Assembly (NCBI GenBank): GCA_965199815.1
Contig: CBDATE010000010.1
Location: 26,384-90,383 of the forward strand
Direction of reading: 5' to 3'
Length of the DNA stretch: 64,000 bases
Origin: Pseudomonadales bacterium
GTDB lineage: Bacteria > Pseudomonadota > Gammaproteobacteria > Pseudomonadales > Azotimanducaceae
Shown: positions 10,108 to 28,379 of the stretch, in pieces
Layout of the letters: each line of letters begins with the position of its first letter
Position numbering within the stretch: position 1 is the stretch's first letter
Made by a program: the position numbers and the translations under genes
Notes under the pieces: generated by a model
What the model was told of the DNA's origin: nothing
Seen by the model: the letters and a program-made list of their open reading frames with translations, nothing else
The model's database searches: none

Positions 10108-10120
10108 CCATTTCATCAGC

Positions 10121-12055: not shown

Positions 12056-12375
12056 TGCCGGGGCGACTGATGCGTGTGTCCTGAAGGGGTGCTCTTCTTG
12101 TCCGGGGAAAACCCGACGGCATAGGGATGTAGGGAGGGAGGTATGCCGCCGGGCGAACCCTGAAACTCAATCTCGAATCAGCTTGAATCGGTGTGCTCGG
12201 GTAGTCGAGCTTGATTCCTGCTGCAATGCAATTGGCTACTATAAACTGATTCGAGCGTGAGTATTTACTTGAGTTGTGAGTGTTACGCACATGTGTGCAA
12301 GAACTGTCTCTCGCCAGTGCAACTTTTTGAACACGCATCGCAAGCCGGATATTCTCCGTTTATGCACATGTCATT

Positions 12376-12431
12376 CACATGATTGGCACACGATTGGCAC
12401 ACGATTGGCACACGATTGGCACACGATTGGC
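12376..12431. repeat. Five phased copies of an 11-bp motif (CACAYGATTGG)
   Basis: GATTGGCACAC begins at 12381, 12392, 12403 and 12414, with a degenerate copy at 12425. The repeat lies in the 440-bp AT-richer spacer between convergent gspD and tusA. Confidence 0.9.
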
Positions 12432-12498
12432 CCGGCGATTGCTGTGCGTATCACTTCTGAACACCGCAAGCTGATCCGGGCAGTGCCCGTCAACAACT

Positions 12499-12756
12499 TC
12501 ATGCCCCACCTTTTTCAACAACATAGACATAGAGTTCGGCTTCTTGCGAGGCGTACAGCAAGCGGTGTCCGAGGAAGTGGCAGTAGTCGGAGAAATCCTT
12601 GCGGGTCGTTGGGTCGGTCGCGGTGATGCGTATGCGCTCACCAACCGACATGTCACGAACGCAGTTGCGCAGCAGCATGAGCGGCTCCGGGCAGGTCAAC
12701 CCCCTGGCATCGAGGCTTCTTTGCGTCATCTGCTGTGTTGTCGGCGTATCTTGCAT
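12499..12756 (-). CDS. tusA: Sulfurtransferase TusA/SirA family
   Basis: 85-aa ORF with LDARGLTCPEPLMLLRNCV (CPxP active-site motif). Confidence 0.85.
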   Translation of the reverse strand: MQDTPTTQQMTQRSLDARGLTCPEPLMLLRNCVRDMSVGERIRITATDPTTRKDFSDYCHFLGHRLLYASQEAELYVYVVEKGGA

Positions 12757-12802
12757 CAGGATATGGAGTAATCTCTCACTACATTCAACCAGACAGACAT
12801 TC

Positions 12803-14155
12803 GTGCATACATGTCCCCGGATTCAGGCAAGGCTTCGGGCAGCGCTCCTGCTGGCAGCCTGCATCGGCAGTCAACAACTATACGCGACACCCGATACCGA
12901 AACGCGCATCGAGACAGCGCGGTTTGAGCTTGCTTCAGCCCTGGAGCGTACCAGAGAGCAGATTGCGCGCCTTGAAGGTACAGAAGCCATCGCGCCTCTC
13001 GAGCAGGCTATTCGTGGCTTCGAGATACAAATCTTCAGAGATGCCCCGGAACTGGCAGAAGCCTGGATGTGGCTTGGCGATGCCTATCTGCAAGCCGAGC
13101 AGATACAGGCCGCGAGCAATGCCTACGAACAATCGATTCACATCACGCGTGTGAATCGCGGACTGTTCACACTGGAACAGCTTGAAACCCTGTACCGCCA
13201 GGCCAGGCTGCTTGAAACCACTGGCGACCTTGATGGTGCCACCGCGCGCGAAGAATACGCTCTGGTCCTGCAGCGACGACAATTCGGGCGTACCCCCGAA
13301 CTGGTTCCGAGCCTGAATCGTCTGGCCGGGTGGTATCTCTCGCTGTCCGAACCTGTGCGTGCACGCCAGTTGTACGACGAAGCTATCTCGACTATGGAAA
13401 GTGCCCCCGACAAGCACGACACAACACTCAAGAGCGCGTTGATAGACTCCCATGTTGGTATCGCGAATGCCTATCGTATGGAGCGATTCCCTCCTGACGG
13501 CTTCTACGAAGATGAGGACAAGGAATTCAACTGGCGGGCGGGACAGCGGCAACCCGCCAAATTGAACCTGTCTCACGGTCTGTATTTCGCGCCGGCCAAT
13601 CGCGCCCTGTTGCGTGCCGAGGCTCTGCTGGCACCGCAGGCCGATGCTTCCGATGCAGCCAGATTGCGACTGTCAACAGTCAGAATCGCCCTCGGAGACT
13701 TGAACATGCTGTTCGAGCGCTGGGGCAGCGCCGAACAGTGGTACAAGTCCGTCTTTGCACTCTGGGAAGGCTTGCCAGAGGGCGAGCCACAGGAGACCGG
13801 GCAAACTCTGGACGAGAGACTGCACACCTGGTTCGGCAATCCGGTTCCGCTGCATCTTCCCCTGCCAAAGGATATAGGGCGGGTCAAGGACTACCCACCG
13901 GAAAGGATTGGCATCGGATCGATTACGCTCGCTTTTTCACTGTCTCCGCAAGGCAAGGTCGAACGTATCAAGACGCTTGACATGGAGCCTGACCGGTTTC
14001 GGGACCTGCGTTTCCGGCGTATCCTGCGTGAATCGCGCTTTCGTCCGCGCATCGAGCAGGGTGTAGCCGTGAGTTCTGAAGAATTCGTCCATCGCCACGA
14101 GTTCCTGTACGTGACGCAGGATGCGTCAGGCGCAGAATCGGGCACTGCGGATTGA
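12803..14155 (+). CDS. Secreted TPR-like protein with a C-terminal TonB_C-like domain
   Basis: The start is moved to GTG at 12803 to avoid overlapping tusA. The signal peptide is RIQARLRAALLLAACIGSQQLYA. The middle is helical-repeat sequence. The C-terminus (YPPERIGIGSITLAFSLSPQGKVERIKTL...ILRESRFRPRIEQGVAV) resembles the TonB C-terminal fold. Confidence 0.6.
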   Translation: MHTCPRIQARLRAALLLAACIGSQQLYATPDTETRIETARFELASALERTREQIARLEGTEAIAPLEQAIRGFEIQIFRDAPELAEAWMWLGDAYLQAEQIQAASNAYEQSIHITRVNRGLFTLEQLETLYRQARLLETTGDLDGATAREEYALVLQRRQFGRTPELVPSLNRLAGWYLSLSEPVRARQLYDEAISTMESAPDKHDTTLKSALIDSHVGIANAYRMERFPPDGFYEDEDKEFNWRAGQRQPAKLNLSHGLYFAPANRALLRAEALLAPQADASDAARLRLSTVRIALGDLNMLFERWGSAEQWYKSVFALWEGLPEGEPQETGQTLDERLHTWFGNPVPLHLPLPKDIGRVKDYPPERIGIGSITLAFSLSPQGKVERIKTLDMEPDRFRDLRFRRILRESRFRPRIEQGVAVSSEEFVHRHEFLYVTQDASGAESGTAD

Positions 14156-14243
14156 CATACTGTACGTATAATCAGACTCTCGGAATACACGCGTTTGCAG
14201 ACGGCCAACCAGGGAAAACCACTGCGTGAGAGGCAGCCTCGAT

Positions 14244-15251
14244 ATGTCAATCGAACCACTCCGAACAAGAGCACCCGCGCTCCTGCTGACCCTGCTCATG
14301 GTCATGCTGATCAGTGCCTGCACTCCGCAATCGAGCAGTTCGCCCCCGGGAGTGCCCTCGCTACCCTCTGCCGGCGGTCAGGCTGGTAGCCCTCCCCCCG
14401 GGGGAGGCCCTGCGGGTGGTGGTGCGCCTTCGGCTGGCGGGGATGCGGGTGGTGGCAGCTCCGGCGAAGGCGGCGCAACGAATGCCGGTACGCCGTCCGG
14501 CAGCGCGGATGGCAGCGCTTCCGGCGGAGGGAGCTCCGCTGGAAGCATGCCATCTGGCAGCGCTTCTGGCGGAGGGAGCTCCGCTGGAAGCATGCCGTCT
14601 GGCAGCACTTCCGGAGATGGCGGACAGGACGGTGCGCAAAGCTCATCCAATGGTACGCAATCATCCTCCGGAAGCGGACAGCCGACAGCAAGTGCCTCCG
14701 GCAGCTCGGGAAGCCAACCGGCGGGGAGTGGCGCTGCGTCAGCCGGTGGCGGTACAGGTGGCGGTGCAGGTGGCGGTACGGGTGGCGGCGGGACAGTTGG
14801 TGGTACAAGTGGTGGCGGCGGTATTGGCACAGGCGATATCGGCGGTGCCGCGGCCATTTTCAACAAGGCGCTCGGCGACTTTGACGGTGTCATCCTTGCC
14901 GGTCAGCGACGCGGCGCATCCACTTCGGGCACAAGCGGCGAGCTGCCGGGCAGCAACGCCGGCAACAGAACAGGATCAGGCTCAGCCAGGCAAGGCACTG
15001 GTACGATTGCCGGTGCCCGCGGGAATTTCCCCGGCGGCACACAAACCACAAGCCGCGGCATGGGCTCGGGCGGGAGCGGCAAAGCTCCGCGTGGCAGCAA
15101 CGCGACAGTCGATGATATCCCGCCCGATATTCCGGTTGCCGACGATGATGATGTCCTCGCACGCCAACTGCGGGAAGCCGCCATGAACGAGCAGGACCCG
15201 GAACTTCGCGAAAAGCTCTGGGAAGAGTACCGACGCTACATCAAAGGCTGA
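14244..15251 (+). CDS. Gly/Ser-rich lipoprotein
   Basis: It has a lipobox (LLMVMLISAC), a long G/S/A low-complexity region containing a 45-bp tandem duplication, and a conserved-looking acidic C-terminal helix (DDDVLARQLREAAMNEQDPELREKLWEEYRRYIKG). Confidence 0.55.
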   Translation: MSIEPLRTRAPALLLTLLMVMLISACTPQSSSSPPGVPSLPSAGGQAGSPPPGGGPAGGGAPSAGGDAGGGSSGEGGATNAGTPSGSADGSASGGGSSAGSMPSGSASGGGSSAGSMPSGSTSGDGGQDGAQSSSNGTQSSSGSGQPTASASGSSGSQPAGSGAASAGGGTGGGAGGGTGGGGTVGGTSGGGGIGTGDIGGAAAIFNKALGDFDGVILAGQRRGASTSGTSGELPGSNAGNRTGSGSARQGTGTIAGARGNFPGGTQTTSRGMGSGGSGKAPRGSNATVDDIPPDIPVADDDDVLARQLREAAMNEQDPELREKLWEEYRRYIKG

Positions 15252-15293
15252 AGATTGACACATGACTCACAGTCACTGGAGACTACCAACATC

Positions 15294-16568
15294 ATGAACC
15301 CCTCGCGAATCTGCCTCGTCCTGTCGCTTGCCATCCCGCTGCTCGCCATGTCTCTCGGCGGCTGTGCGACCACGGCCGAAGTGCGCCGGGTGGACATCAC
15401 TCCGGCGAAGCAGAGTCCGCAGCCAATTGACGAAATGCGCCTGCTCGATGTCGGCATACTGCACTTTCAGCCGAACATCCCGGAGGATTTCGACGAGCAG
15501 ATTGAAGACAACATCATGCCCGAGATTCGCCGCGCCGAAGCCTATTTCCTGGCCTATCAGCAAAAGCTGGTGCTTGAAGGCACAGGCAATTGGGGAGCAG
15601 TGCGCGTACTTCCGCGGCCGAGCAACGCAGTCGATGTCCTCCTCGAAGGGCAGATCGATGTTTCCAATGGCGAGCGACTGGCGGTGCACGCCAAGGCAAC
15701 CGATGCCACCGGACGCATCTGGCTGAACAAATCCTACAAGGCGCTTACCAGCCGCTATTCCTACGGGAACAGGCAGGGCGAACAGATAGATCCCTACCAC
15801 GGGGTCTTCCGCGAGATCGCCGACGACCTGCTCAAAGCCATGCTGGAACTGCGCGATGAGCAGCTCGACCGCATCAAGCTCGCGGGGGAATTGCGCTTTG
15901 CGCGCGACTTCTCCACGGAAGGATTCGGCGACAACATCAGCATCCGGCGCGACGGACGGGTCACCATCAAGCGCCTGCCCGCCGAAGGCGACCCGATGTT
16001 CGCGCGGGTGCGCGAGATTCGCAAGAAGGAACATCTGTTCATCGACACCCTGGACGAGTACTACGGTCAATTCAGCGACGAAATGTCAACGGCCTACAAC
16101 GAATGGCGACAAGCTTCCTTCGAGGAGGTGTATCAACAGCAGGCGATGAAGCGCGAAGCACTGACAGAACTCATCGCCGGTGCCGCGCTGATTGCCGGTG
16201 GCATCTACGCACAGACGAGCAGCAATCCGATTACCACAACCTCCGGGGCGGTGGGCATGGCAGGCGGCGCGGGGCTCATCAAGAGTGGTCTGGACAAGCG
16301 CGCCGCGGCCCAGATTCACTCGGAAATCCTGGCGGAACTCGGCGAGTCCGCGGGCGAGTCCATCGCCCCGCACACGATCGAGCTGGAGAATCGCACCATC
16401 TATCTGACAGGCAATGTCGAGGCACAGTACGAAGTCTTTCGCGAGGCCCTGCGTCGCTTGTACTTCGAGGAAATGGGACTGACGCTACCGGAAGAAGCGG
16501 CTGACTCGGACGTACAGGCAGAGCGCCCGCAACCCGAGCAGGTGCCAGAGACCCCGTACACCGGCTAG
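15294..16568 (+). CDS. Lipoprotein, unknown function
   Basis: It has a lipobox (LLAMSLGGC). The 424-aa sequence is non-repetitive, with a Gly/Ala-rich hydrophobic segment near the C-terminus (LIAGAALIAGGIYA...GAVGMAGGAGLI). Confidence 0.6.
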   Translation: MNPSRICLVLSLAIPLLAMSLGGCATTAEVRRVDITPAKQSPQPIDEMRLLDVGILHFQPNIPEDFDEQIEDNIMPEIRRAEAYFLAYQQKLVLEGTGNWGAVRVLPRPSNAVDVLLEGQIDVSNGERLAVHAKATDATGRIWLNKSYKALTSRYSYGNRQGEQIDPYHGVFREIADDLLKAMLELRDEQLDRIKLAGELRFARDFSTEGFGDNISIRRDGRVTIKRLPAEGDPMFARVREIRKKEHLFIDTLDEYYGQFSDEMSTAYNEWRQASFEEVYQQQAMKREALTELIAGAALIAGGIYAQTSSNPITTTSGAVGMAGGAGLIKSGLDKRAAAQIHSEILAELGESAGESIAPHTIELENRTIYLTGNVEAQYEVFREALRRLYFEEMGLTLPEEAADSDVQAERPQPEQVPETPYTG

Positions 16569-16616
16569 ACCAGATTGCGTCCTGCGGCGCAGACTCCGGG
16601 CCGCCACCGGCAGCAA

Positions 16617-18095
16617 ATGTCTGATTCTGAAGTCATCCAACCGCGCAAGGTACAGCTCGGTGCCGACACCTCGCTGGTGCCCGGATTCAGGTTCAGGTAC
16701 ATCTGGGTGACCCTGGCCGTGGGTCTCGCAGCCTTGTCCCTGACTGCGCTCATTCTGTTGGCACCGGAAATATCACGCGACCCGCCGCCGCCACCTCAGC
16801 CACAGACAGGGGCAGCGCCGATGGCGGACAGAGGCGAGCTCTCCACCCCCTTGCAGATGCAGCGACACGAGCGCGCGCTCGAAGAGGCGAACCGTTTCGT
16901 CAGGCAATTCACGGAACTCGAAATTGAACTTGAAGACGCATGGAATGTGCGCGCCTGGGGCAAACAGGCATTCGAAGCGGCGGGGCAGCTGGCAATCGAA
17001 GCCGAACGCGCCTTTTCCGAGCGAGACTACGAATCGGCAATGACAGGCTACACGCAAGGTGTCGGCGCGCTGGAGAACATGCTCGCGAATGCGCGCTCGA
17101 ACTACGAACAGCAGGTGCAGATCGCCCTTGATGCACTCGCCGAACGCGATGCCGAAGCGGCCAGTCAGGCGCTCGATGCGGCCGCGCTCTATCAGCCGGA
17201 GGCCGCCATGATCGAGAGTGGTCGGCGACGACTCGCGCGGCTTGATGAACTCGATGCCCTGCTCAACCGGGCATCCGAGGCAGAGACCGGCGGCAACTAC
17301 GGCGAAGCCCTTCGTCTGGCCGAACAAGCGCGCGCCATGGATCCGGGTACGCGAGGCATCGCCGACATCATCAGCCGCTTGCGCCAGGCGGGCCTTGATG
17401 CGAAGTTCAGGGCGATACTGGCAGAAGGTTATACCGCTCTTGATGGCGAGGACTTCGAGAGCGCAGAAACGGCCTTCACGGCGGCGCTCGCCCTGATTCC
17501 GGGTGACCCGGCGGCTCGACAGGGACTCGATCAGGTGCTGACCAGCCGCTCGAACTCGCGCATCCGGATCGGGTTGGCCGAGGCGACGCAAAAGATCCAG
17601 GCAGAAGACTGGGAAGGCGCAATCGAGGCACTTGAACAGGTGCGCCAGATCGATCCCAACCTGAGCGAAGTCAATGCAGGTCTCCTGAATGCTCGCAGTC
17701 GCAAGGCGCTCGACGAGGCGCTCGACGAAGTGCTGCGCGACCCGGGGCGGTTGGCCGATGAGCGCCGCTTCACGCGCGCCAGCACACTGCTGAGCGAGAG
17801 TTCACGCATCGAGTTGGCCGGGCCAAGGCTGAGCGCACAGCGCGAGAAGCTTGCCGAGTTCATCGACATCGCCTCCGGAGAAGCCAGGGTCACCCTCTTG
17901 TCCGACGACAAGACGGATGTGCGCCTGCAATACCACGGAGACCTCGGTCGATTCAGGCAGCGCGAGATGATTCTGCGACCTGGCCGCTATCTGATTCAGG
18001 GCGGTCGTGACGGCTACCGCGATGTACGCTTCGAGGTTGACGTAGCGCCCGGTGAGCAGCGCATCGAAGTGCTGTGCGAGGAGCCGGTGCGCTAG
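16617..18095 (+). CDS. Membrane-anchored TPR-repeat protein with a PEGA-like C-terminus
   Basis: It has one TM helix (IWVTLAVGLAALSLTALILLAP) and an Ala/Glu/Leu-rich TPR-like repeat region. The C-terminus (RVTLLSDDKTDVRL...ILRPGRYLIQGGRDGYRDVRFEVDV) resembles a PEGA beta-sandwich. The start is taken at the ATG at 16617. Confidence 0.55.
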   Translation: MSDSEVIQPRKVQLGADTSLVPGFRFRYIWVTLAVGLAALSLTALILLAPEISRDPPPPPQPQTGAAPMADRGELSTPLQMQRHERALEEANRFVRQFTELEIELEDAWNVRAWGKQAFEAAGQLAIEAERAFSERDYESAMTGYTQGVGALENMLANARSNYEQQVQIALDALAERDAEAASQALDAAALYQPEAAMIESGRRRLARLDELDALLNRASEAETGGNYGEALRLAEQARAMDPGTRGIADIISRLRQAGLDAKFRAILAEGYTALDGEDFESAETAFTAALALIPGDPAARQGLDQVLTSRSNSRIRIGLAEATQKIQAEDWEGAIEALEQVRQIDPNLSEVNAGLLNARSRKALDEALDEVLRDPGRLADERRFTRASTLLSESSRIELAGPRLSAQREKLAEFIDIASGEARVTLLSDDKTDVRLQYHGDLGRFRQREMILRPGRYLIQGGRDGYRDVRFEVDVAPGEQRIEVLCEEPVR

Positions 18096-18099
18096 CCTG

Positions 18100-20166
18100 A
18101 TGTTCGCATCCAACTCCGGCACCATCACGCCAACCCCCTACCGGGCAACGCACAGACCGAACGCCGGGCGATTGCTGCGCGCCTGGCTTTTCGCCGTCAC
18201 GCTCGCTGTTGTTGCGCTACTCATCGGCCTGGCAAGCTGGTTCCTGTTCACCGCCAAGCGCGTCGAAATTATCGTGAGCGAGTACAGCGGGGCCGCTATC
18301 GAGCGCCCCGTCGAACTGGCAATACGCGGAGGCCTGTCCCTGCCGCTGGGAAATCTCAGGCTCATCCGCCGAGGGACGTACCAAATCAGGATTACCGCCC
18401 CCGGTTATCACGATTTCGAGGATGACCTCAGCATCAAGGCAGGCTCGCGACGCTTCGAATACCGCCTGGAGCGGCTGCCCGCACAACTGAGCGTGACCTC
18501 CGAGCCGAGTGGTGCGCGCATTCGCCTGGGCGAGACCGAGCTCGGCACAACGCCTCTCTCCGATGCCCCGGCAGCGGCCGGTACCTGGTCGCTGTATGCC
18601 GAATTACCGCTCTACCGGAGTGTGGAGAAAGAGATCGAAATCGAAGGGCTGGACTTGCCGCAGCAACTGCACATCGAACTTGATCCGGACTTCGCGCGTG
18701 TCAGCCTGAGCACGATTCCGAGCGGTGCCGAGGTGCTGGTGGATCGGGAAGTACGCGGCATCACGCCGCTGGAACTCGACCTTGCGTCGGGGACACACAC
18801 CGTCCTCTTGCGCAAGAGCGGCTATGCGCCGAGGTCCGAGCGGCTCGAAGTTGTCGCCAATCAGGCACAGGAATTGCGTGACCTGCGTCTGACCAGGGCA
18901 TCCGCGCGACTGCGCGTGGAGACCACTCCCGAGGGCGCAGTGGTGTTTCTGGGCGACGACTATCAGGGACTGTCTCCCTTGAACCTGAGCCTGGCACCGG
19001 AACGAACTCAACGCCTGCGCGTACGCAAGATCGGCTACGAGGATGCCGAGCGCAGCCTCACGCCCTCACCCGGCAGCAACGAGACGATTCGCGTCGAGCT
19101 GGTCCGTTCGCTCGGCGCGGTGGTGGTGCAGGTCTCACCCGGAGATGCCGAACTTTTCGTGGACGGAAGCAAGACCCCACAGGCCAATACCCGCCTGGAA
19201 CTCTCGGCCGAGCCGCATCGCCTGGAGTTTCGTCGTCTCGGCTACGAACCCGTGGTGCGCGAAGTGCTGCCGAGACCCGGCTTCACGCAGCGTATTGAAG
19301 TGCGCATGCTGACGCTCGAAGACGCGCGCATCGCCAGGCTCAAGCCGGAAATCACCACAGCAGCCAATCACAGGCTGGTGCTTCTCCAGCCCACGACCAT
19401 CGAACTCGGTGCCTCCCGGCGCGAGGCCGGACGGCGCGCCAACGAAGTGCTGCGCGAGGTGCCGCTCACGCGCGAGTTCTATCTCGCCACTACCGAGGTC
19501 ACCAACGCCGAGTTTCGTGCCTTCGCTTCCGGCCATCAGTCGGGCACACATGCCGGACATTCGCTCGACGGCGACACGCAACCAGTGGTCAACATCAGTT
19601 GGCAGGATGCCGCGCGCTATTGCAACTGGCTGTCCGAGCAGGACGGCCTGACACCCGTGTACACAGTGCGCGGGGCGAATGTCGAAGGCTGGGACATGCG
19701 CCGAAGCGGCTATCGGCTACCGACCGAGGCCGAGTGGGCCTGGGCGGCCCGCTATCAGGGAGATGCACAGCCGCTGCTGAGAATGCCCTGGGGCGATGCC
19801 GCGAAACCCCCGGAACGGCACGGAAACTACGCCGACACCTCGGCCACCTATGTCGTCAGCCGGGTGATTTTCGGCTACAACGACAATCACATTGTCAGTG
19901 CGCCCGTGGCCAGCTTTGCCGCCAATCAGCACGGACTGTTTGATATGGGCGGGAATGTCGCCGAGTGGGTACAGGACTTCTACGAACAATCGCCGACTCG
20001 CCAGCAGCCGCCGGATGCCACGGGCCCGGACGAGGGGGAGTACCATGTCATACGAGGTTCGAGCTGGATGCATGGCTCCGTCAGTGACCTGCGACTTTCC
20101 TACAGAGACTATGGCGAGGATGGCCGCTCCGACCTCGGCTTTCGCATTGCCAGGTACGTAAACTGA
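18100..20166 (+). CDS. Membrane-anchored 4-5x PEGA repeat protein with a C-terminal FGE/SUMF1 (formylglycine-generating-enzyme-like) domain
   Basis: It has a TM helix (LLRAWLFAVTLAVVALLIGLASWFLF) and repeated PEGA-type units (VTSEPSGARIRLGETELGTTPL; LSTIPSGAEVLVDREVRGITPL; VETTPEGAVVFLGDDYQGLSPL; VQVSPGDAELFVDG). The FGE-sulfatase motifs are TEVTNAEFRAF, PVVNISWQDAARYCNWLS, YRLPTEAEWAWAAR, GGNVAEWVQD and IRGSSW. Confidence 0.75.
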   Translation: MFASNSGTITPTPYRATHRPNAGRLLRAWLFAVTLAVVALLIGLASWFLFTAKRVEIIVSEYSGAAIERPVELAIRGGLSLPLGNLRLIRRGTYQIRITAPGYHDFEDDLSIKAGSRRFEYRLERLPAQLSVTSEPSGARIRLGETELGTTPLSDAPAAAGTWSLYAELPLYRSVEKEIEIEGLDLPQQLHIELDPDFARVSLSTIPSGAEVLVDREVRGITPLELDLASGTHTVLLRKSGYAPRSERLEVVANQAQELRDLRLTRASARLRVETTPEGAVVFLGDDYQGLSPLNLSLAPERTQRLRVRKIGYEDAERSLTPSPGSNETIRVELVRSLGAVVVQVSPGDAELFVDGSKTPQANTRLELSAEPHRLEFRRLGYEPVVREVLPRPGFTQRIEVRMLTLEDARIARLKPEITTAANHRLVLLQPTTIELGASRREAGRRANEVLREVPLTREFYLATTEVTNAEFRAFASGHQSGTHAGHSLDGDTQPVVNISWQDAARYCNWLSEQDGLTPVYTVRGANVEGWDMRRSGYRLPTEAEWAWAARYQGDAQPLLRMPWGDAAKPPERHGNYADTSATYVVSRVIFGYNDNHIVSAPVASFAANQHGLFDMGGNVAEWVQDFYEQSPTRQQPPDATGPDEGEYHVIRGSSWMHGSVSDLRLSYRDYGEDGRSDLGFRIARYVN

Positions 20167-20459
20167 TGGTCAACACAGGATTCGCATTCATGTTGGGCGT
20201 GGCGTTCAGCAGCCTGCTCCTGATAACGCCTGTGTCGCTGCGGGCGCAGACGCAAGATCAGGATCAACAAACGGTACCGGGCGCGGTTATTGCGCCGCAA
20301 CCTGCAGGAGATGATGAAATCGATCCGGCAGGCGAGCCGCAGGAGGACGATGAGGACAGCACGGCTCAGCAACAGGCCCCTGCAGTGCTGATCGAAGATA
20401 TTATCCCCTCCGAGATGATCTCGGAGGATCTGGCGGTGGACTTTCCGATAGACATATGA
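20166..20459 (+). CDS. Small secreted acidic protein
   Basis: 97-aa ORF with a signal peptide (FAFMLGVAFSSLLLITPVSLRAQ) and a D/E/Q-rich remainder. Its start overlaps the upstream stop (TGATG) and its stop overlaps the next start (ATGA). Confidence 0.5.
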   Translation: MVNTGFAFMLGVAFSSLLLITPVSLRAQTQDQDQQTVPGAVIAPQPAGDDEIDPAGEPQEDDEDSTAQQQAPAVLIEDIIPSEMISEDLAVDFPIDI

Positions 20460-21256
20460 AGTCAACCACACGCACAGAACTGCTCTTCCAGGTCAGCGCA
20501 CTGGTGATTTGTGCGCTTCTGGTGCATCTGGTGTATGTGATCCTCATTCGCCCGAGCGCCGATGCCATACTCGAATCGCAAGCCGCCCTGGCGGCCGCCG
20601 GGCAGATGGTCGATACCCCCAGATCCATCTACGTCATATTGCGCGACTTCGAGCAGGAGGCGTGCTTCATTCTCATGTTCTGGTCTTTCGCCATCATGGG
20701 ATTCAAGGCCAGAATCGCTCTTGCGGAGCGTTCGCTGCTCGCTCAGGATCTGATCGGCGTGGTAGAAGGCGTGAGCATCCTGCCCGGCGATTCGCGCAAG
20801 TTTCTGCGCCCACTCGAAGCCCTGCCGGGACAGCAGCGCGAAGCACTCCTGACGCGCGCGCTCATGGCCGCTCTGAGTCGCTTTGCCTCGACGCGAAACG
20901 TGCAGGATGTATCCGAATCCATGCGCTCGATTTGCGAAAGCGAGGCCGAGCGCCTGGACAGCGAACTCGCCATGGTGCGTTATATCGCCTGGGCGATTCC
21001 CTCCATCGGCTTTATCGGCACGGTGCGCGGCATTGGCGAAGCTCTGGGGCAGGCGTACAAGGCGGTCGAGGGAGATATTGCCGGGGTCACGGCATCACTC
21101 GGGGTGGCATTCAACTCCACATTTACTGCCCTGCTCATCAGCATTCTGGTGATGTTCTTTGTCTATCAGTTGCAGCTCGTACAGGAACGACTGGTGCTTG
21201 ATGCCCAGCGCTACTGCGATGAGCGGCTGATTCGTCACATGACCGTTCGTGAGTGA
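20456..21256 (+). CDS. MotA/TolQ/ExbB-family proton channel protein
   Basis: 266-aa ORF with an N-terminal TM helix. The C-terminal pair of TM helices carries the family signature region (AWAIPSIGFIGTVRGIGEALGQAY...GVTASLGVAFNSTFTALLISILVMFFVYQL). Confidence 0.75.
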   Translation: MKSTTRTELLFQVSALVICALLVHLVYVILIRPSADAILESQAALAAAGQMVDTPRSIYVILRDFEQEACFILMFWSFAIMGFKARIALAERSLLAQDLIGVVEGVSILPGDSRKFLRPLEALPGQQREALLTRALMAALSRFASTRNVQDVSESMRSICESEAERLDSELAMVRYIAWAIPSIGFIGTVRGIGEALGQAYKAVEGDIAGVTASLGVAFNSTFTALLISILVMFFVYQLQLVQERLVLDAQRYCDERLIRHMTVRE

Positions 21257-22673
21257 GCCACGGGTGACTGCCAGACCCACCCTGAAAGTGCTTGATCTCA
21301 ACGACTGGGAGCTTTCCCTGTACGGCGAGCGGGAACCCGGAGGCGCGTGGGAACTGGCAGTACAGGCACCCGGCTTTGCCATGATCGATGGCAAGAACAT
21401 CCACTTCGGCGAACAGGCGATGCAGACGCACCGGCGCACACCGCTTGGCTCGTACGCCGCCTACTGGCATCGAATGGACGCATCGCCCCTGCGCTCGCGC
21501 AATCGTGAAGTGCGTACCGGTGCCGACCTGGTCTTCCATCAGCTCAGGTGCCTGATTGCCGAGAGCGAGGGTTCGGGGAGCACGGGAAGGGGAGATGTCT
21601 CCGCGTCGCGGACAGTGATCACGGTGCCAAGCCACTACAGCAAGGATCAGCTCGCAGTACTGCTCGGCATTATCGAGCAGACGAACATTGCGCCGGTCGC
21701 GATGGTCGATAGCCTGATCGCAGCCGGGGCCACGGACCCGGCGGACTTCATCATCGATCTGTCGTTGCACCAGATGACCATCGTCCGCTCCGAGGTCTCG
21801 CCCGAGCTGGTGAAACGCGTGACGGTGGAATCGGTACCGGACGGCGGCTTGCTGCCACTCCTCGATGCCTGGCTGGCGCGCATTGCCGACGAGTTCGTGC
21901 GCGAGACGCGGTTTGATCCGCTGCGCATCGCCGACACGGAACAGCAGCTCTGGTCGCATCTCTACGCCTGGCTGAGCGGCGAAGTGAGCGCGCGGGACCA
22001 CGGGCTGCATCTCGAGGTCAGCAACAGCTCCGGGCATTGGCACGTGAACTTTGATACCCGCGAGCTGGAGCGCATGACCGCGAAGCTGGTGCAGGACGCG
22101 GTGGCACTGTGCGCCGAGGTCGAGGATGCCGCGCTGCGAGTCAGTGCGCGCGCGGCGCGCATACCGGGGCTCGTCAAGGGTATTCGCGAGGCCGGGATCA
22201 GGAACTGCGCGACGCTCGCCGCGGATGCCGTCGTCAGGGGCATCGCGGGCAATGCGGATGTGCCTGGACAGGACAGCCAGGCGGGCATCAGATTCATGAC
22301 GGCTCTCGAGACGGTGGAGAACGACGCGACGGCTGCCGGGCTGAATGCGGGGACACACACCGACATGGGTGACATGGGTGCGGGGACACACGACAAAAGC
22401 GACGGGGACACACACCGCCCAGGCGAAACGCGCCCATCGGCACCCACGCATCTGGTCTATGCCGGCGCGGCCTACGAAGTGCCCGACGGAGCCGAACTGA
22501 CCACGCTGATCAGCGCATTTCCGGAGAGCGACTCATATCGTCTGGTCAAGACAGCTGATGCCATTCACTTCTACCGCATCGGCGAGGATGCCGAAGAGCC
22601 GGTGCAATCGCTCGGCTGCGGAGAGGTCTTTGCCACGGACGGCGGCAACCTCCTGGCCATCAGGCTCGCGTGA
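21249..22673 (+). CDS. Hsp70/actin-fold protein with degenerate nucleotide-binding loops
   Basis: ITVPSHYSKDQLAVLLGIIEQTNIAPVAMVDSLIAAG parallels DnaK [37 protein letters not shown]. The phosphate-1 position reads VLDLNDWELS (DnaK GIDLGTTNS). The phosphate-2 position reads FIIDLSLHQMTIV (DnaK VYDLGGGTFDVS). The start is a GTG at 21249. Confidence 0.55.
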   Translation: MSEPRVTARPTLKVLDLNDWELSLYGEREPGGAWELAVQAPGFAMIDGKNIHFGEQAMQTHRRTPLGSYAAYWHRMDASPLRSRNREVRTGADLVFHQLRCLIAESEGSGSTGRGDVSASRTVITVPSHYSKDQLAVLLGIIEQTNIAPVAMVDSLIAAGATDPADFIIDLSLHQMTIVRSEVSPELVKRVTVESVPDGGLLPLLDAWLARIADEFVRETRFDPLRIADTEQQLWSHLYAWLSGEVSARDHGLHLEVSNSSGHWHVNFDTRELERMTAKLVQDAVALCAEVEDAALRVSARAARIPGLVKGIREAGIRNCATLAADAVVRGIAGNADVPGQDSQAGIRFMTALETVENDATAAGLNAGTHTDMGDMGAGTHDKSDGDTHRPGETRPSAPTHLVYAGAAYEVPDGAELTTLISAFPESDSYRLVKTADAIHFYRIGEDAEEPVQSLGCGEVFATDGGNLLAIRLA

Positions 22674-22674
22674 C

Positions 22675-23754
22675 ATGGCGCGCAGGAAGCTGTCAACTTT
22701 CTCCATGTCCTTCCTGGACGTGATGTCCTGCGGGCTCGGTGCCGTCGTGCTCATGTTCTTCATCCTCAATCACGAGAGCATTCAGGCGTTTGCCGAAGAC
22801 AATGAAGTCCTGCTCGCAGAAATACGGCGACTCGATTTCCTCTCGCAGGAAAGCGACATGAGCCTGTCCGATCTCGAAAGCGCCATCGCCGAGATCGAAC
22901 AGCAACTCGAGCAGACGCGCGCCTCGAAGGAGCAGCTCACGGAAACGGCGGAGCGCGATCAGGAGTCCCTGCAGCGCATCACTTCCGGCCTCGCGGCAGA
23001 AGAGTCGCGCGTCGAGACCCTGGCGAGACAGGTCGAAGCGCAAAAACAACAAGTGGAAGCCCTCGAGCGGGATGCACAGGATGGCGGCGGCACTTCACTG
23101 CGCGAACTCGAAGGCGAAGGCAGCCGCCAGTACCTGTCCGGCATACGCATGGACGGTCGGCGCATCGTGGTCGCCATAGACACCTCGGCGAGCATGCTCG
23201 ATGAAACTCTGCTGAACGCGATACGCAGGAAGAACATGCCCGCCGAGCAGCGCCGGACATCCGACAAGTGGATGCGCACAGTGCGCACCGCGAACTGGAT
23301 TGCCGCCTCGCTCCCGCTGGAGAGCCAGTTCGAATTGATCGTGTTCGCAGAAACAGCGCAGGCAATCCTGGGCGAAGCTCGCTGGCGACCCAGCGCAACC
23401 GGCGATCATCTGCAACGCGCCTTCGACGCACTCGAAGAGATTGCCCCCGAGGGCGGCACCAACCTGGCCGCGCTGATGGATGTGCTGGACAGCCTGTCTC
23501 CGAAACCGGACCGCGTATTTCTGGTGACTGACGGGCTGCCGACCCTCGGCCGCCGTACACCTCGGCGCAATACCATATCGGCGCGTGAGCGGCTGGAGTT
23601 ATTCCTCGATGCCGTCAATCGCGTGACCCCCGGTATGGCGTTCAATATCATCCTGCTCCCGCTTGAAGGAGACAACGCGGCGGCCGGTGCTTACTGGGAA
23701 CTCGCGCGCAATACCGGCGGCTCCTTCCTGTCACCATCGGTGGACTGGCCATGA
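22675..23754 (+). CDS. ExbD/TolR-like TM helix + coiled coil + VWA domain protein (paralog 1)
   Basis: The start is taken at the ATG at 22675. The N-terminus MARRKLSTFSMSFLDVMSCGLGAVVLMFFIL resembles the ExbD/TolR TM helix and keeps the membrane Asp. An E/Q/L/R-rich heptad region follows. The VWA MIDAS is VVAIDTSASM, with a later EGGTNLAAL and FLVTDGLPT. Confidence 0.65.
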   Translation: MARRKLSTFSMSFLDVMSCGLGAVVLMFFILNHESIQAFAEDNEVLLAEIRRLDFLSQESDMSLSDLESAIAEIEQQLEQTRASKEQLTETAERDQESLQRITSGLAAEESRVETLARQVEAQKQQVEALERDAQDGGGTSLRELEGEGSRQYLSGIRMDGRRIVVAIDTSASMLDETLLNAIRRKNMPAEQRRTSDKWMRTVRTANWIAASLPLESQFELIVFAETAQAILGEARWRPSATGDHLQRAFDALEEIAPEGGTNLAALMDVLDSLSPKPDRVFLVTDGLPTLGRRTPRRNTISARERLELFLDAVNRVTPGMAFNIILLPLEGDNAAAGAYWELARNTGGSFLSPSVDWP

Positions 23755-24758
23755 TGAAACGCAGGGAAAACGAAGACTTTGGCATGCCGTTTCTGGCCAT
23801 GATCTGTTGTGGATTCGGTGGCCTGCTGCTGCTCCTGATGGTGGCCGAGACCTCGGAGACGCGCATCAACGAACAATCCGTAATCGACCTTGAAGCCCGC
23901 GTCAACATGATGCGCGATGCCCTGCTCGATTCGCGCCGCGACTCTGACCAGGCCAAACTGACCTTCTCCGACATGCAGTCGGAACTCGACCGGGAGTCGC
24001 GAGCGCTTCGCGACTTGCGCGCACGCATCGCGAGAATCGAGCAGGAGCTCGAGGCAGCGGACGAGCAGGCATATCAACTTGCCGAACAGGCGCGCGGTCT
24101 GGCGAAGGCGCGCCAGTCCCTGACTGAAGAGATGCTGGCGCTTCAGGTGACAGGCGGAATCACCGGCACGAACGCCATCGGCGGCATCACCGCCGACAGT
24201 CAATACATCATCTTCGTCATCGACACCTCGGGCAGCATGTTCAGCTACGCCTGGGAGGGGGTGCGACGCAAGGTGGGAGAGGTGCTGGCGGTGTACCCGG
24301 AAGTCAGGGGCATTCAGGTGATGAATGATATGGGGGACTACATGTTCCGCAGCTTTGCCGGGCGCTGGATGCCGGACTCTCCGACCGTGCGCAGGCAGAT
24401 AGTTGACCGACTGTCATCCTGGAATCCGTTCTCCAATTCAAGCCCGGTCGAGGGTATTCAACGTGCGATTTCCACCTTCTTCGACCCCGAACTGGAGATT
24501 TCCATTTATGTGTTCGGAGACGACTTTCAACAAAACAATTCCATCCAGGGAGTTGTCGATGCCGTGGACCGGGCCAATCGCGAGAGTCAGGAAACGGGCC
24601 GTCGCCGGGTGCGCATTCACGCTGTGGGCTTTCCCGTGCTCTTTCAGCCAGACGCTCCGCAACAAGCGCGCATCAGCGCGTACAGGTTCGCCGCGCTGAT
24701 GCGCGAATTGACGCAGCGAAACCTCGGTGCCTTTGTCGGCTCTTCGGAATTGCAATAG
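23751..24758 (+). CDS. TM helix + coiled coil + VWA domain protein (paralog 2, lacks the TM Asp)
   Basis: The N-terminus is MMKRRENEDFGMPFLAMICCGFGGLLLLLMVA, followed by a coiled-coil region. The VWA MIDAS is IFVIDTSGSM. Its start overlaps the upstream stop (ATGA at 23751-23754). Confidence 0.65.
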   Translation: MMKRRENEDFGMPFLAMICCGFGGLLLLLMVAETSETRINEQSVIDLEARVNMMRDALLDSRRDSDQAKLTFSDMQSELDRESRALRDLRARIARIEQELEAADEQAYQLAEQARGLAKARQSLTEEMLALQVTGGITGTNAIGGITADSQYIIFVIDTSGSMFSYAWEGVRRKVGEVLAVYPEVRGIQVMNDMGDYMFRSFAGRWMPDSPTVRRQIVDRLSSWNPFSNSSPVEGIQRAISTFFDPELEISIYVFGDDFQQNNSIQGVVDAVDRANRESQETGRRRVRIHAVGFPVLFQPDAPQQARISAYRFAALMRELTQRNLGAFVGSSELQ

Positions 24759-24787
24759 AGTGTGCCCATACATGGAGTGCGCCCATA

Positions 24788-25477
24788 ATGCCCCGATTCG
24801 GAAAATTCAACATGGCTTCAGTGCGGGTTGTCGGCCTCCTGATGCTGGCGGGCCTCATCACAGCCTGTGGCGGCGCGCAGGTACAGATGCAAAGCAGCTA
24901 TCCCCCGCCGCTGGTGCAACCGGTGCCGGTACATGTCGGCCTGCTGACCGATGATGCGTTCGCGAACTATCAGCACACGGAATCCATCGAGGGGTTCGGC
25001 GACTGGAGTGTGCTGGTCGGCAGCGATCAGCAACACATGTTCGAGCAAACCATGCGCGGACTCTTCGCCCGATTCTCGCAGGTGAGCGGCATCGGCCAGA
25101 CGGCGATGGGCGCTGAACTCATCATCAAGCCAGAGGTCGATACGTTCGAGATCAGCATTCCCGGACAGTCGCAAACCGAGTTTTTCGAGGTTCGCATCGT
25201 GTATCAGATACAACTTCTCGAAACGCAGGGGCAGGAGGTGGTCAATTGGACACTGTCTGCTTATGGCCGCTCCGATGTGCGCAACTTCCGCAGCCTCACG
25301 GGTTCGAACTCCGGGGCCGCACTGGCGGCCGCCACCAGAACGGCACTGCGGGATGCGTCAGCCCTGATCGCGCGCCAGCTTCCGCTCCTGCCGGAGATGA
25401 AAACCTGGTTGGCGGAACGCGCGCGTCGCGGCGAATCATCTGCTGGCGAGGTATCCGGCGAGGCGACCGGCGAATAG
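24788..25477 (+). CDS. Lipoprotein, unknown function
   Basis: It has a lipobox (LMLAGLITAC). An alternative start is the second Met at 24812. Confidence 0.55.
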   Translation: MPRFGKFNMASVRVVGLLMLAGLITACGGAQVQMQSSYPPPLVQPVPVHVGLLTDDAFANYQHTESIEGFGDWSVLVGSDQQHMFEQTMRGLFARFSQVSGIGQTAMGAELIIKPEVDTFEISIPGQSQTEFFEVRIVYQIQLLETQGQEVVNWTLSAYGRSDVRNFRSLTGSNSGAALAAATRTALRDASALIARQLPLLPEMKTWLAERARRGESSAGEVSGEATGE

Positions 25478-25583
25478 CCCGCCCACGGGCCTCCCCGTCA
25501 CGGTGTGTGTCGCCTTCGCTTGACGAAGGGCGTACTATCTACCATCATCGTTGCAAGCGTCGGGTCGTCCCCGGAAGGTACTG

Positions 25584-26243
25584 ATGAGAAGATTTCTGTG
25601 CATCGCCTGTCTTGCCGGGATCATGACAACCCTGACGGGCTGCGTCACCTCGAGCGTTCAAATCATCAGGGAGGGCGACACCGGCATTGACGGGCAGGAT
25701 GCCGTGGTGGTACTTGGCAAGAGTCAGCAGACCGCCGGCCACGAAACCGAGATCGAGTATATCGGCTGCGTCGGACGCTCCCTGCTACGCGCCGACACAC
25801 CGTTTCAGGTGATTTCCCAGAACGATTTCAAGGATATGACCTTCCCCTGGTTCGAACCCCGCTTTGCGCCGCGGGAGGTCAGCGAATTCAGTGCTCTCAT
25901 TGAAGAACCCATGTTGCGTCAGCGTATGGAGTCTCTCAGTGTGCGCTACATTGTCTGGATTGAAGGCACCACGGAAAACACGGGGTCGGGCGGTGGCATG
26001 ACCTGCGCGGCATCACCCGCCGGGGCAGGATGCTTCGGCTTCGTGCGCTGGGACAAGTCCTCGCAATACGAAGCCTCCATCTGGGATGTCAGGAACAACA
26101 CGACCGTCGGCAAGATCAGCGCTCAGGCCTCGGGCACATCATTCATGCCCGCCGTAATCGTGCCTGTGCCCATGATTGCGCCGGTGCAGTCAAACGCCTG
26201 CAACCAGATGGCTGATCAGATCGGGGAGTTTCTTGCCGGGTGA
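25584..26243 (+). CDS. Lipoprotein, unknown function
   Basis: The start is taken at the ATG at 25584, giving [20 protein letters not shown] (lipobox). Confidence 0.5.
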
Positions 26244-26267
26244 AGGGGCGGTCGAGGTTGTCGAAGC

Positions 26268-28292
26268 TCACACCAACAGTGGGGCAATGACCAGAGAGAC
26301 AATGGCCATCACGTTGATGAGAATGTTCATGCTCGGCCCGGAGGTGTCCTTGAACGGGTCACCGACCGTATCGCCCACCACGGTGGCGGCATGGGTGTCC
26401 GAACCCTTGCCGCCAAGATGACCCTTCTCCACATACTTCTTGGCGTTATCCCAGGCACCGCCAGCATTCGCCATAGTCAGCGCGAGCAACACGCAGCCGA
26501 GCAATCCGCCACCAAGCGCGCCACCTAGCGCCTCCGGGCCTATACCGAACCCGACCGCCGGTGGCACACCCACGGCGATCACGCCCGGAATAATCATGCG
26601 ACGCAAGGCTGCTTGCGTGGCAATATCGATACAGCGCGCGGTATCCGGCTTCCCCGTGCCCTCGAGCAGGCCGGGAATCTCACGAAACTGGCGACGAATT
26701 TCGTTCACCATATCCATGGCCGCATCGCCGACTGAAGTCATGGTCAATGACGCAATGAGAAATGGTGTGATGCCCCCGATAAAGAGCCCGATGAGCACCT
26801 TGGGGTCACCCAGGTGCAACGAAAATTCACCCTGTATGTTGCTGATGGTTTCAACATAGGCCGTGATGATGGCCAGCGCAGCCAGCGCAGCTGCTCCTAT
26901 GGCGAAGCCCTTGCCGAGCGCGGCGGTGGTGTTGCCCACTTCGTCGAGTGAATCCGTGATCTTGCGCGTCTCTTCCCCAAGCCCGCCCATCTCGGCAATG
27001 CCGCCGGCGTTATCAGCCACGGGCCCGTAGGCATCCACCGCCATGGTCATGCCCACAGTGGCAAGCAAGCCGACGGCGGCGATGCCAACGCCATAAAGCC
27101 CCGCCAGTTCCGTCGAAACCCAGATGATGGCGCATATGGTCAACAGTGGTACGACGACTGACTGCATGCCGTTGGCAAGACCGGTGATCATGACGGTGGC
27201 GGAACCCGTCTGGCCCGCCTCGGCGATCTTGCGAATGGGTTTCGCCGAGGTGTAATACTCGGTGACCAGTCCGATGATGACACCGCCCACGGAGCCGAGC
27301 AGCACTGCCTGCCAAACCGAGGCGCTGGCATTGCTCAGATCCACAACGAACCAGGCCGCAACAAGGAAGATGACGGGAGTGCCTACCATGCCGATCCTGA
27401 GCGCCTTGGCGGGATTTGCCGACGAGAACGCGCGCACCAGAGCGATGCCCAGCACCGAACAGACGAGCCCCACCGAAGCGAGCATGAGCGGCAGAAACAT
27501 GAGTATTTCCTTGCCCCTGTACTCGCCAAGGCCGGGGGCGATAGTTTCCACCGTCGCTGCACTCAAGGTTGCAGCGATAGCGATAGTGGCAATCATGGAG
27601 CCGCAGTAGGACTCGAAGATATCCGAACCCATGCCGGCCACATCTCCGACGTTATCGCCGACATTGTCGGCAATCACACCCGGGTTGCGCGGGTCGTCCT
27701 CGGGAATACCGGCTTCGATCTTGCCAACCAGATCCGCGCCCACATCGGCACTCTTGGTATAAATGCCGCCGCCGACGCGCGAAAAGAGCGCTACCACCGA
27801 AGCTCCCATGCCGAAGCCGTGAATGTTCTCGGCAGTGTGCGGGTCTCCACCAAAAAACAGGTACACCGCACCCAGACCGAGCAGGCCCAGAGCGGCAACG
27901 GCGAGCCCCATGATGGAGCCGCCAAAGAAGGCGACGGACAGTGCGTCCGACATGCCTCGGGTGTGCGCCGCTGTGGTGGTACGCACATTCGCGCGCGTTG
28001 CGGTGTACATCCCCAGCCAGCCAGCCAGTGCCGACGAAAGCGCCCCGGCAAGGAATGCCAGTGCCGTTTCCGGACCCAGAGACCACCACAGGATACCCAG
28101 AAGGATGGCCGCGAATATGGCGAGATTCAGATACTCCCGGCGCATGAACACCATGGCGCCTTGATGAATCGTCTCGGCGATGTCCTGCAATGCCTGCTCT
28201 CCGGCTGGATAGCGTCGCACGAGAAAATAGATGACCCCCGCAACTGCGAGGCCAAACGCACCGACAAGGGGCGGAACTAGTTCTATCTGCAT
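26268..28292 (-). CDS. hppA: Membrane-bound proton-translocating pyrophosphatase
   Basis: The 674-aa part of the 944-aa track ORF begins at [19 protein letters not shown]. The motifs are [42 protein letters not shown] and [13 protein letters not shown]. Confidence 0.9.
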
Positions 28293-28379
28293 GGTTGTGA
28301 TCACCGTGAAAGTGCTGGCGAGTCCGCCAGGGTCAGGTGGAATGGGAAAATGAATAGCCCGCAATTTTAGCATGAGGAC

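Follow-up and report, generated by a model that had tools for sequence, protein, structure and literature searches.

An envelope gene cluster of Pseudomonadales predicted to encode a TolQ/ExbB-type motor with a pair of von Willebrand factor A proteins as its inner component

The window analysed here is a stretch of 64,000 nucleotides from a bacterium of the Azotimanducaceae (Pseudomonadales; assembly GCA_965199815.1, contig CBDATE010000010.1). At 12803-26243 it holds twelve open reading frames (ORFs), all on the forward strand and designated G01 to G12 (Table 1), whose products probably include an ion-driven inner-membrane motor of an unusual kind. When the sequence was re-read, the ends of these co-directional ORFs and their tight or overlapping junctions were found exactly where the original prediction, a motif-based reading of the same DNA, had placed them. 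The intergenic distances from G01 to G12 are 70, 3, 6, 4, -1, -4, -8, 1, -4, 29 and 73 nt. G05 and G06 share the sequence TGATG (20164-20168), G06 and G07 share ATGA (20456-20459), G07 and G08 overlap by 8 nt (21249-21256), G08 and G09 abut with 1 nt between them (22673/22675), and G09 and G10 again share ATGA (23751-23754). Judged by the orthologs, the true starts of G02, G03, G04 and G12 are probably the internal ATGs listed in Table 1, in which case three of the short gaps lengthen somewhat, by a few dozen nucleotides. The revised starts leave the overlapping or abutting junctions from G05 to G10 untouched, an arrangement that would fit translational coupling. Scans for promoter and terminator consensus sequences gave counts at chance level, with none above chance in the intergenic gaps, and an Rfam scan of 11500-27000 found no RNA family.

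Table 1. Genes of the cluster and of its borders in the window. TM, transmembrane; FGE, formylglycine-generating enzyme; VWA, von Willebrand factor A.
Feature	Position	Strand	Group	Predicted product	Evidence and remarks
G01	12803-14155	+	accessory	secreted TPR protein with C-terminal TonB_C-like domain	TPR_12, E 1.9e-9
G02	14226-15251	+	core	Gly/Ser-rich lipoprotein	lipobox LISAC / LWACAP conserved; likely start 14244
G03	15255-16568	+	core	lipoprotein, ~400 aa	lipobox in 61/71 orthologs; likely start 15294
G04	16575-18095	+	core	TM-TPR protein	TPR_19 and TPR_14 matches; likely start 16617
G05	18100-20166	+	core	bitopic inner-membrane protein	four PEGA (E 1.3e-44) and FGE-sulfatase (E 3.2e-44)
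G06	20166-20459	+	core	small secreted acidic protein	overlaps both neighbours
G07	20456-21256	+	core	TolQ/ExbB-family channel	PF01618 (MotA_ExbB), E 1.8e-14
G08	21249-22673	+	accessory	cytoplasmic protein with Hsp70 nucleotide-binding-domain/actin fold	AlphaFold2 and Foldseek
G09	22675-23754	+	core	first putative axle subunit	VWA_2, E 1.4e-9
G10	23751-24758	+	core	second putative axle subunit, paralog of G09	hhalign and DxSxS
G11	24788-25477	+	accessory	lipoprotein	lipobox in 63/72 orthologs
G12	25551-26243	+	accessory	lipoprotein	lipobox in 65/69 orthologs; likely start 25584
tusA homolog	12508-12678	-		TusA	divergent from G01; tblastn with TusA of locus L001, 46% identity, E 1e-14
H+-pyrophosphatase gene	26268-29102	-		H+-pyrophosphatase	converges on the downstream end of the cluster
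gspN	8355-9095			type II secretion protein	upstream of the cluster
gspD	9977-12055			type II secretion secretin	upstream of the cluster

When one genome per species was scanned, 333 relatives emerged. Our comparisons use the best 80 of these, all of which belong to the Pseudomonadales in the GTDB taxonomy (Ca. Azotimanducus, Azotimanducaceae, Ca. Azophilus, Halieaceae and Halioglobus). In tblastn searches with the window proteins, the twelve genes were collinear in nearly all of the ~80 loci that were long enough to show them, and the genes are strongly co-conserved, as the original prediction required. Identities within this twelve-gene clade are ~50% for G10, ~42% for G03, G05 and G09 and ~30% for G01, G04, G08 and G11. 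The cluster lies between tusA and a methyltransferase gene with sufBCD in many relatives, whereas in the sublineage of the window gspD and the pyrophosphatase gene take the place of these neighbours. It looks like a vertically inherited chromosomal locus rather than an island, and a search of a plasmid collection with G10 gave no match. A search with the channel returned at least 8000 candidates, all of them matching, and an exhaustive channel search of 50%-identity representatives gave 1260 clusters below E 1e-10, of which 145 also lay below E 1e-30. One protein (P0016, locus L002) is labelled in one source as coming from a 'Limisphaerales' metagenome-assembled genome, but we rejected it as a verrucomicrobial copy: at 70% identity, its contig shows the gene order of the cluster together with the methyltransferase and sufBCD context known from the Pseudomonadales, and it is more likely mis-binned than derived from Verrucomicrobia.

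Re-searching from a representative 37% identical to G07 led to a compact clade of four loci (L084-L087), one of them in an assembly of Oceanicoccus sp.; some further matches of this search are labelled Porticoccaceae. The order in these loci is a G02-like gene, G03, G04, G05, a mini-G06, the channel and two TM-VWA genes, and these eight genes keep this order at 24-37% protein identity and with four different sets of flanking genes. G01, G08, G11 and G12 are absent from L084-L087, and the channel gene directly adjoins the TM-VWA pair, whereas G08 intervenes in the window. Judged by gene content, the deep core is thus one of eight genes, to which the clade of the window added four (G01, G08, G11 and G12). 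The proposal of a twelve-gene cluster therefore stands for the clade of the window, in which the genes are collinear, but only eight of the twelve form the deep core. Neither the cluster nor any of ~85 related loci contains an ExbD, TolR or MotB gene.

The central component is G07, which scores 54 bits against PF01618 with a gathering cutoff of 22.9; every listed homolog also carries PF01618. No other gene of the cluster is as well conserved: its identity is 60-91% over the ~80 loci. An AlphaFold2 model built from 38 sequences (predicted local distance difference test, pLDDT, 88.3) was closest in a fold search against the PDB to TolQ, with a template modelling (TM) score of up to 0.67, followed by ExbB, with MotA clearly weaker. 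A single-sequence search of the PDB with G07 gave no match, and its profile found a weak match to TolQ only. Residues T189 and T222, which are invariant in both clades, align to T145 and T178 of TolQ; the corresponding pore-lining threonines of ExbB are T148 and T181. The family score, the TolQ-like fold and the pore threonines together uphold the earlier assignment of G07 to the MotA/TolQ/ExbB channels, and we presume it to be a pentameric stator. Two hydrophobic helices (~13-31 and ~71-89) precede its cytoplasmic domain, compared with one in TolQ and ExbB, which hints at a four-helix, MotA-like membrane topology around a TolQ-like core fold.

The two genes downstream of G08, a pair that follows the channel gene in every locus, encode proteins of a common build. 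G09 consists of a basic N-terminus, an ExbD/TolR-like helix (SFLDVMSCGLGAV, with Asp15), a coiled coil of ~135 aa that is supported by profile matches, and a VWA domain with a complete metal-ion-dependent adhesion site (MIDAS). Asp15 is invariant in 75/75 orthologs, as are the MIDAS residues D169, S171, S173 and D286, while T262 is T or S in 74/75. G10 has no VWA match in Pfam, but hhalign identified it as a full-length paralog of G09 (99.5%, E 2.8e-23, 300 columns), and its DxSxS motif is invariant in 72/72 orthologs. These results, with the VWA_2 match of G09, confirm two paralogous proteins with a TM helix, a coiled coil and a VWA domain. Their shared helix follows a basic stretch and reads F(L/I)D(V/I)xxCG(F/L)GA. 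It resembles the motifs of ExbD (F-I-D-V-M) and TolR (L-L-D-V-L), the form in G09 being F-L-D-V-M. The helix Asp is present in 68/72 orthologs of G10 and, at each of the four compact loci, in the two paralogs alike. The G10 copy of the window instead reads PFLAMICCGFG around residues 13-17, with FLAM for FLDV and hence Ala for Asp; this replacement is confined to the window and its three closest relatives (L005-L007), where G10 is otherwise conserved and its gene intact. The positive-inside rule suggests that the coiled coil and VWA domain of both proteins are periplasmic.

The spacing between helix and DxSxS motif is nearly constant in the twelve-gene clade, at 133-136 residues in G09 and 122-127 in G10 (136/124 as a pair), while the pairs of the compact clade measure 113/112, 104/101, 94/93 and 101/97. 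The linkers of the two proteins thus change in length together between loci, the pattern that is expected of a parallel heterodimeric coiled coil. With the Asp helix conserved in both proteins and the TolQ pore threonines invariant in the channel, the suggestion that the paralogs are stand-ins for ExbD/TolR would fit well. The missing canonical partner, the Asp helices, the pore threonines and the co-varying linkers are together consistent with a 5:2 motor that has a heterodimeric axle. We consider it probable, to judge from these sequence features, that the cluster encodes an ion-driven 5:2 inner-membrane motor of the MotA/ExbB/TolQ class with an unusual dimeric inner component. G07 would form the outer ring as a pentamer around a G09-G10 heterodimer, which would replace ExbD/TolR/MotB, and each VWA protein would insert its N-terminal, Asp-bearing helix into this ring.

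Such a core has been predicted before. A 2025 paper entitled 'Origin and Evolution of Bacterial Periplasmic Force Transducers' (PMC12204202, section 8, Fig. 4c-d) describes in Proteobacteria a tolQ-like gene with a heterologous pair of genes for TM-tethered vWA proteins that carry a trans-pore helix, and no tolR or exbD. This helix is TolR/ExbD-like with a conserved Asp, the seed of the family being from Idiomarina loihiensis, and in the AlphaFold3 models reported there the vWA helices occupy the interior of a TolQ-like pentamer, where threonines surround their two Asp residues (PMC12204202). The same arrangement, a tolQ-like gene and an adjacent vWA pair without tolR or exbD, occurs here as G07-(G08)-G09-G10. 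The paper covers the three motor genes, states that their function is unknown and reports no phenotypes; the words 'sulfatase' and 'Hsp70' are absent from its text, in which 'PEGA' was not searched for. A literature search for ExbB/TolQ/MotA proteins with PEGA, FGE-sulfatase or VWA found nothing beyond PMC12204202. That the set could not be mapped onto a known system, as the original prediction had it, therefore holds for experimentally characterised systems only, since the core had already been predicted. The motor core is thus not new, although the prediction is purely computational, and the partner set of eight core and four accessory genes is, as far as we found, undescribed. The same can be said of the PorK/GldK-like and Hsp70-like components and of the single-Asp variant, which are new as far as we found.

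The remaining core genes may supply the surroundings in which this motor works. G05 runs from a cytoplasmic tail through one TM helix to four PEGA domains and an FGE-sulfatase-like domain. Its best NCBIfam match is GldK/PorK (TIGR03525; E 6.4e-30, 104.8 bits with a cutoff of 350), over the C-terminal half only, and its closest sequences in the PDB are the non-enzymatic variable protein 1 of T. denticola and PorK/GldK (E ~1e-18 to 1e-17), whereas true FGEs rank lower. The catalytic Cys pair of FGEs lies in the C-terminal segment, and the counterpart of this segment in G05, HVIRGSSWMHGSVSDLRLSYRDYGEDGRSDLGFRIARYVN, contains no Cys. By its sequence, the FGE-like domain of G05 is thus non-catalytic and of the PorK/GldK type. 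In G04, a short cytoplasmic tail precedes the TM helix (residues ~42-64), which is followed by TPRs in the periplasm and by a C-terminal beta domain that resembles PEGA on visual inspection. The cytoplasmic tails of both proteins carry conserved motifs: that of G04, of the type I-x-P-x-x-V-P-L-S-H, occurs in 55/66 loci compared with 3.2% of shuffles, and that of G05 in 71/74 loci compared with 1.8% of shuffles, and both are found in 0/4 loci of the compact clade.

G06 begins with a signal peptide, continues as an acidic stretch of low complexity and ends in the peptide IIPSEMISEDLAVDFPIDI-COOH, which is its sole conserved part and aligns across 75 loci as ..F.PSEEISEDFAVxFPVDI at the C-terminus. 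The mini-G06 of the compact clade, located between the PEGA-FGE and channel genes, is the minimal form of this protein, with 37-42 aa, a hydrophobic leader and the tail PFPEDI, PFPENI or PFLVDM. It has no called gene in L084 and L085, and in L085 no convincing mini-G06 could be read between the PEGA-FGE and channel genes. The Pfam and NCBIfam profiles and the ortholog alignment corroborate the earlier calls of a multi-PEGA protein with an FGE/SUMF1 domain, a TM-anchored TPR protein and a 97-aa acidic protein.

The cluster also encodes four lipoproteins, two in the core (G02 and G03) and two accessory (G11 and G12), and the conservation of all four lipoboxes in orthologs agrees with the motif-based calls. 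G02 ends in a conserved acidic helix (..EQDPELREKLWEEY..), and its counterpart in the compact clade, a secreted Gly/Ser-rich protein of 175-220 aa, has a like C-terminal helix and the same position. G03 shares 30-34% identity with the proteins at the same position in L084 and L085 and can be aligned across both clades. Besides the lipobox, G12 has four cysteines (C62, C141, C150 and C206, numbered from the ATG at 25584) that are invariant in 22 orthologs, which suggests a periplasmic or outer-membrane protein with two disulfides. None of G02, G03, G11 and G12 has a relative in Pfam; the profiles of G03, G11 and G12 found nothing in the PDB, nor did G03 in NCBIfam. The accessory protein G01 has a signal-peptide-like N-terminus and TPRs. 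Its TonB_C domain is sub-threshold in the window copy (E 0.015), but 19/22 orthologs are positive (best E 1.3e-11), which bears out the reading of G01 as a secreted TPR protein with a TonB_C-like domain.

The most unusual accessory protein is G08. Its AlphaFold2 model (pLDDT 84.7) was compared with the PDB using Foldseek, and the top matches were all nucleotide-binding domains (NBDs) of Hsp70 proteins, with E ~1e-15, a target-normalised TM score of ~0.7 to isolated NBDs and a root-mean-square deviation of ~4 Å. The window copy has no match in Pfam, HSP70 included, and a sequence search of the PDB returned only DnaK and Ssz1 at E 0.7; one ortholog matches Pfam HSP70 at 2.6e-4. The phosphate loops of G08 read LDLNDWE and IDLSLHQ, compared with DLGTTNS and DLGGGTFD in Hsp70, and this degeneration makes ATP hydrolysis doubtful and G08 a putative pseudo-ATPase. 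The matches to NBDs and the altered loops substantiate the original description of an Hsp70/actin-fold protein with degenerate phosphate loops. At the C-terminus G08 has a beta domain of ~70 aa and no Hsp70 substrate-binding domain. An FHA identity of this beta domain is hinted at by PF00498 on one homolog, but 0/25 orthologs match that profile. The tail motifs of G04 and G05 are found only where G08 occurs, that is in the twelve-gene clade and not in the four compact loci, and because of this co-occurrence we propose that G08 may dock on these tails, by analogy with PilM on PilN.

A fuller picture of a trans-envelope rotary machine, in which the TolQ-like ring turns a VWA-tipped heterodimeric shaft against a PorK/GldK-like PEGA-FGE scaffold and outer-membrane lipoproteins, G08 gates it through the tails and each axle in the lineage of the window carries one Asp, is a tentative proposal that we rate as somewhat less likely than not. 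In the probable motor itself, parallel coiled coils of ~120-135 residues would span the periplasm and end in the VWA/MIDAS domains, forming a shaft of ~15-20 nm as estimated from residue counts, which proton flow would turn or pull. The VWA heads would hold a ligand near the outer membrane, and the motor would move or load that ligand. G05, G04, the putative outer-membrane lipoproteins G02 and G03, and G06 are the likeliest candidates for the stator-side scaffold or targets, and the acidic C-terminal peptide of G06 could be a ligand of the MIDAS or of the TPRs. As for the output, our best guess is a mechanical role, in which the motor would tether or remodel a complex of outer-membrane lipoproteins; we favour this over uptake or gliding. 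No barrel, receptor, adhesin or pore is encoded. The 5:2 assembly, the topology, the protein contacts and the physiological output are all inferred.

Several points weigh against this interpretation. The G10 of the window lacks the Asp, and a symmetric mechanism with two Asp residues cannot apply there as such. The profile of the N-terminal helix gave no match to ExbD, TolR or MotB in the PDB and Pfam; by itself the helix has too few residues for homology to be tested statistically, and its likeness to ExbD/TolR is suggested by motif resemblance and context. Kinship with the family of PMC12204202 is likewise indicated by gene layout and motifs, not by comparison with the Idiomarina proteins. 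The proposed contacts of G08 with the tails and of G06 with the MIDAS or TPRs draw on co-occurrence in only two clades, one of them of four compact loci, and on analogy. Finally, the cluster encodes no outer-membrane beta-barrel, adhesin or secretion pore that would give an obvious handle on the output.

The alternative that survives best, although we regard it as unlikely, is a gliding, adhesin or secretion apparatus like the type IX secretion system GldKLMN or Agl-Glt, with a motor that moves or releases a surface protein. The proximity of the FGE-like domain of G05 to PorK/GldK speaks for it, as does the layout, in which a motor is combined with a long dimer in the periplasm and an FGE-like protein, much like GldL, GldM and GldK. 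Moreover, gliding has been raised for a related vWA family of the SHLS type (PMC12204202), and VWA domains serve as adhesins in Glt (PMC9946355). The cluster, however, contains no GldL, GldM, GldN or SprA, no outer-membrane barrel and no gene for cargo or an adhesin, and G05 lies far under the GldK equivalog cutoff (105 compared with 350 bits) and is TM-anchored, not lipidated. The hosts, moreover, are planktonic marine clades that are not known to glide.

It is still less probable that the locus is a diverged Ton or Tol-Pal system, in which the channel would energise the TonB/TolA-like G01 or G06 for uptake or outer-membrane stabilisation, with the VWA proteins in a peripheral role. In favour of this, G07 has a fold nearest to TolQ/ExbB, orthologs of G01 carry TonB_C, and TPR proteins (CpoB/YbgF) accompany Tol-Pal, a weak match to YbgF having been found here too. 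Yet there is no ExbD/TolR, TM-anchored TonB/TolA, TolB, Pal or TonB-dependent receptor in the cluster; G01 has a signal peptide, not an anchor, and is missing from the compact clade, which retains the motor; and the Asp helices sit on the VWA proteins. PF02472 and the OmpA-like peptidoglycan-binding domain matched none of the twelve proteins. The original prediction had noted that the cluster lacks an ExbD/TolR domain, an OmpA-like domain, a TonB-dependent receptor, MoxR/DUF58 and Zorya components, and the negative Pfam, NCBIfam and PADLOC results agree with this.

We give little credence to the view that there is not one machine but two or three unrelated adjacent operons (G01; G02-G10; G11-G12). 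This view could account for the wider spacing at G01/G02 (70 nt), G10/G11 (29 nt) and G11/G12 (73 nt) and for the lack of G01, G11 and G12 in the compact clade, and these three genes may be separately transcribed. The twelve-gene order is nevertheless kept in nearly every locus that is long enough, all products are envelope proteins, and terminator-like sites in the gaps do not exceed chance. We consider it very improbable that the locus is a Zorya-like anti-phage or conflict system, in which a MotAB-like sensor motor would be coupled to effectors. Zorya uses a 5:2 motor and VWA, FGE-like and Hsp70-like domains occur in conflict systems, but PADLOC gave weak coiled-coil noise only, and neither a nuclease nor any other effector is encoded. 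The cluster is a single locus that is inherited vertically and stays fixed next to tusA and suf in dozens of genomes, and the channel is 60-90% identical across families, unlike fast-turnover defence islands.

The borders of the cluster are clear from its flanks, tusA on one side and the H+-pyrophosphatase gene on the other. The tusA homolog lies outside the system as its upstream border and is the same neighbour in at least 40 related loci. A long ORF at 12599-14155 overlaps tusA, which makes 12803 the sensible choice for the start of G01. The type II secretion genes further upstream were considered as functionally tied to the cluster, but this was rejected, as gspD is nearby only in the closest relatives of the window. 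The H+-pyrophosphatase ORF encodes 944 aa with a Pfam match from residue 283; its N-terminal 280 aa are probably untranslated, the real start being further downstream. Beyond it, the window holds two restriction-modification systems. One is type III-like, with a res helicase (29819-32374) and an N6/N4 methylase (32371-34041). The other is of type I, with hsdR (44874-48098) and hsdM (56375-58024) ~8 kb apart; the interval between them includes DNA of lower GC content (0.52-0.55 at 52-56 kb) and encodes an HATPase_c_4 protein (49893-51314).

Ion-driven 5:2 motors (MotAB, ExbBD, TolQR, GldLM and ZorAB) deliver energy beyond the inner membrane, and each newly understood family of them has exposed new envelope biology. 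The family considered here is abundant in marine gammaproteobacteria and swaps the usual ExbD/TolR/MotB for coiled-coil VWA proteins. If the motor model is true, each axle in the lineage of the window has to work with only one protonatable Asp, and the lineage would offer a natural way to ask whether both Asp residues are required in 5:2 motors. Our finding overturns nothing, as the motor core was already predicted in 2025; the partner set, the GldK-like scaffold and the peptide-tailed small protein as candidate interactors, and the one-Asp variant are handles for genetics in cultured Halieaceae and for structural work.

Among known systems, Tol-Pal (TolQ-TolR-TolA of E. coli; PDB 8odt and 9ddm) is, among solved structures, nearest to G07 in fold and in sequence; G07 shares the threonines T145 and T178, and in both systems energy would cross the periplasm. 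The cluster differs from it in that TolR, TolA, TolB and Pal are lacking, G07 has an extra N-terminal hydrophobic helix, and the axle would be a coiled coil with VWA instead of a peptidoglycan-binding domain. ExbB-ExbD-TonB uses the same channel family, and TonB_C recurs on the G01 orthologs, but here there is no ExbD periplasmic domain or receptor, and the protein that bears TonB_C is secreted rather than anchored and is dispensable in the compact clade. PorKLMN/GldKLMN resembles the cluster in its inner-membrane motor, long dimeric periplasmic shaft and non-catalytic FGE-like partner (GldL-GldM and the GldK-GldN ring). In contrast to that system, G07 is of the PF01618 TolQ type and not GldL, no GldM, GldN or SprA is present, and G05 is TM-anchored and carries PEGA domains. 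The Agl-Glt machinery of Myxococcus likewise combines a TolQ-like motor (AglRQS), TPR and TonB_C-like domains (GltG/J), lipoproteins and a VWA protein (CglB), but its TolR-like AglQ/AglS and the Glt barrels are absent here, and its VWA domain belongs to an outer-membrane lipoprotein instead of the axle. For Bat/MoxR-VWA systems, the cluster gave no AAA+ or DUF58 match. The pairing of an actin-superfamily fold (G08) with conserved cytoplasmic tails on the bitopic G04 and G05 is reminiscent of PilM-PilN; this is an analogy only, as G08 is structurally nearest to Hsp70 NBDs and not to PilM. Compared with the predicted family of PMC12204202, the motor here sits in a conserved core of eight genes (twelve in this clade), and the second subunit in the lineage of the window is without the Asp that G09 and most G10 proteins carry.

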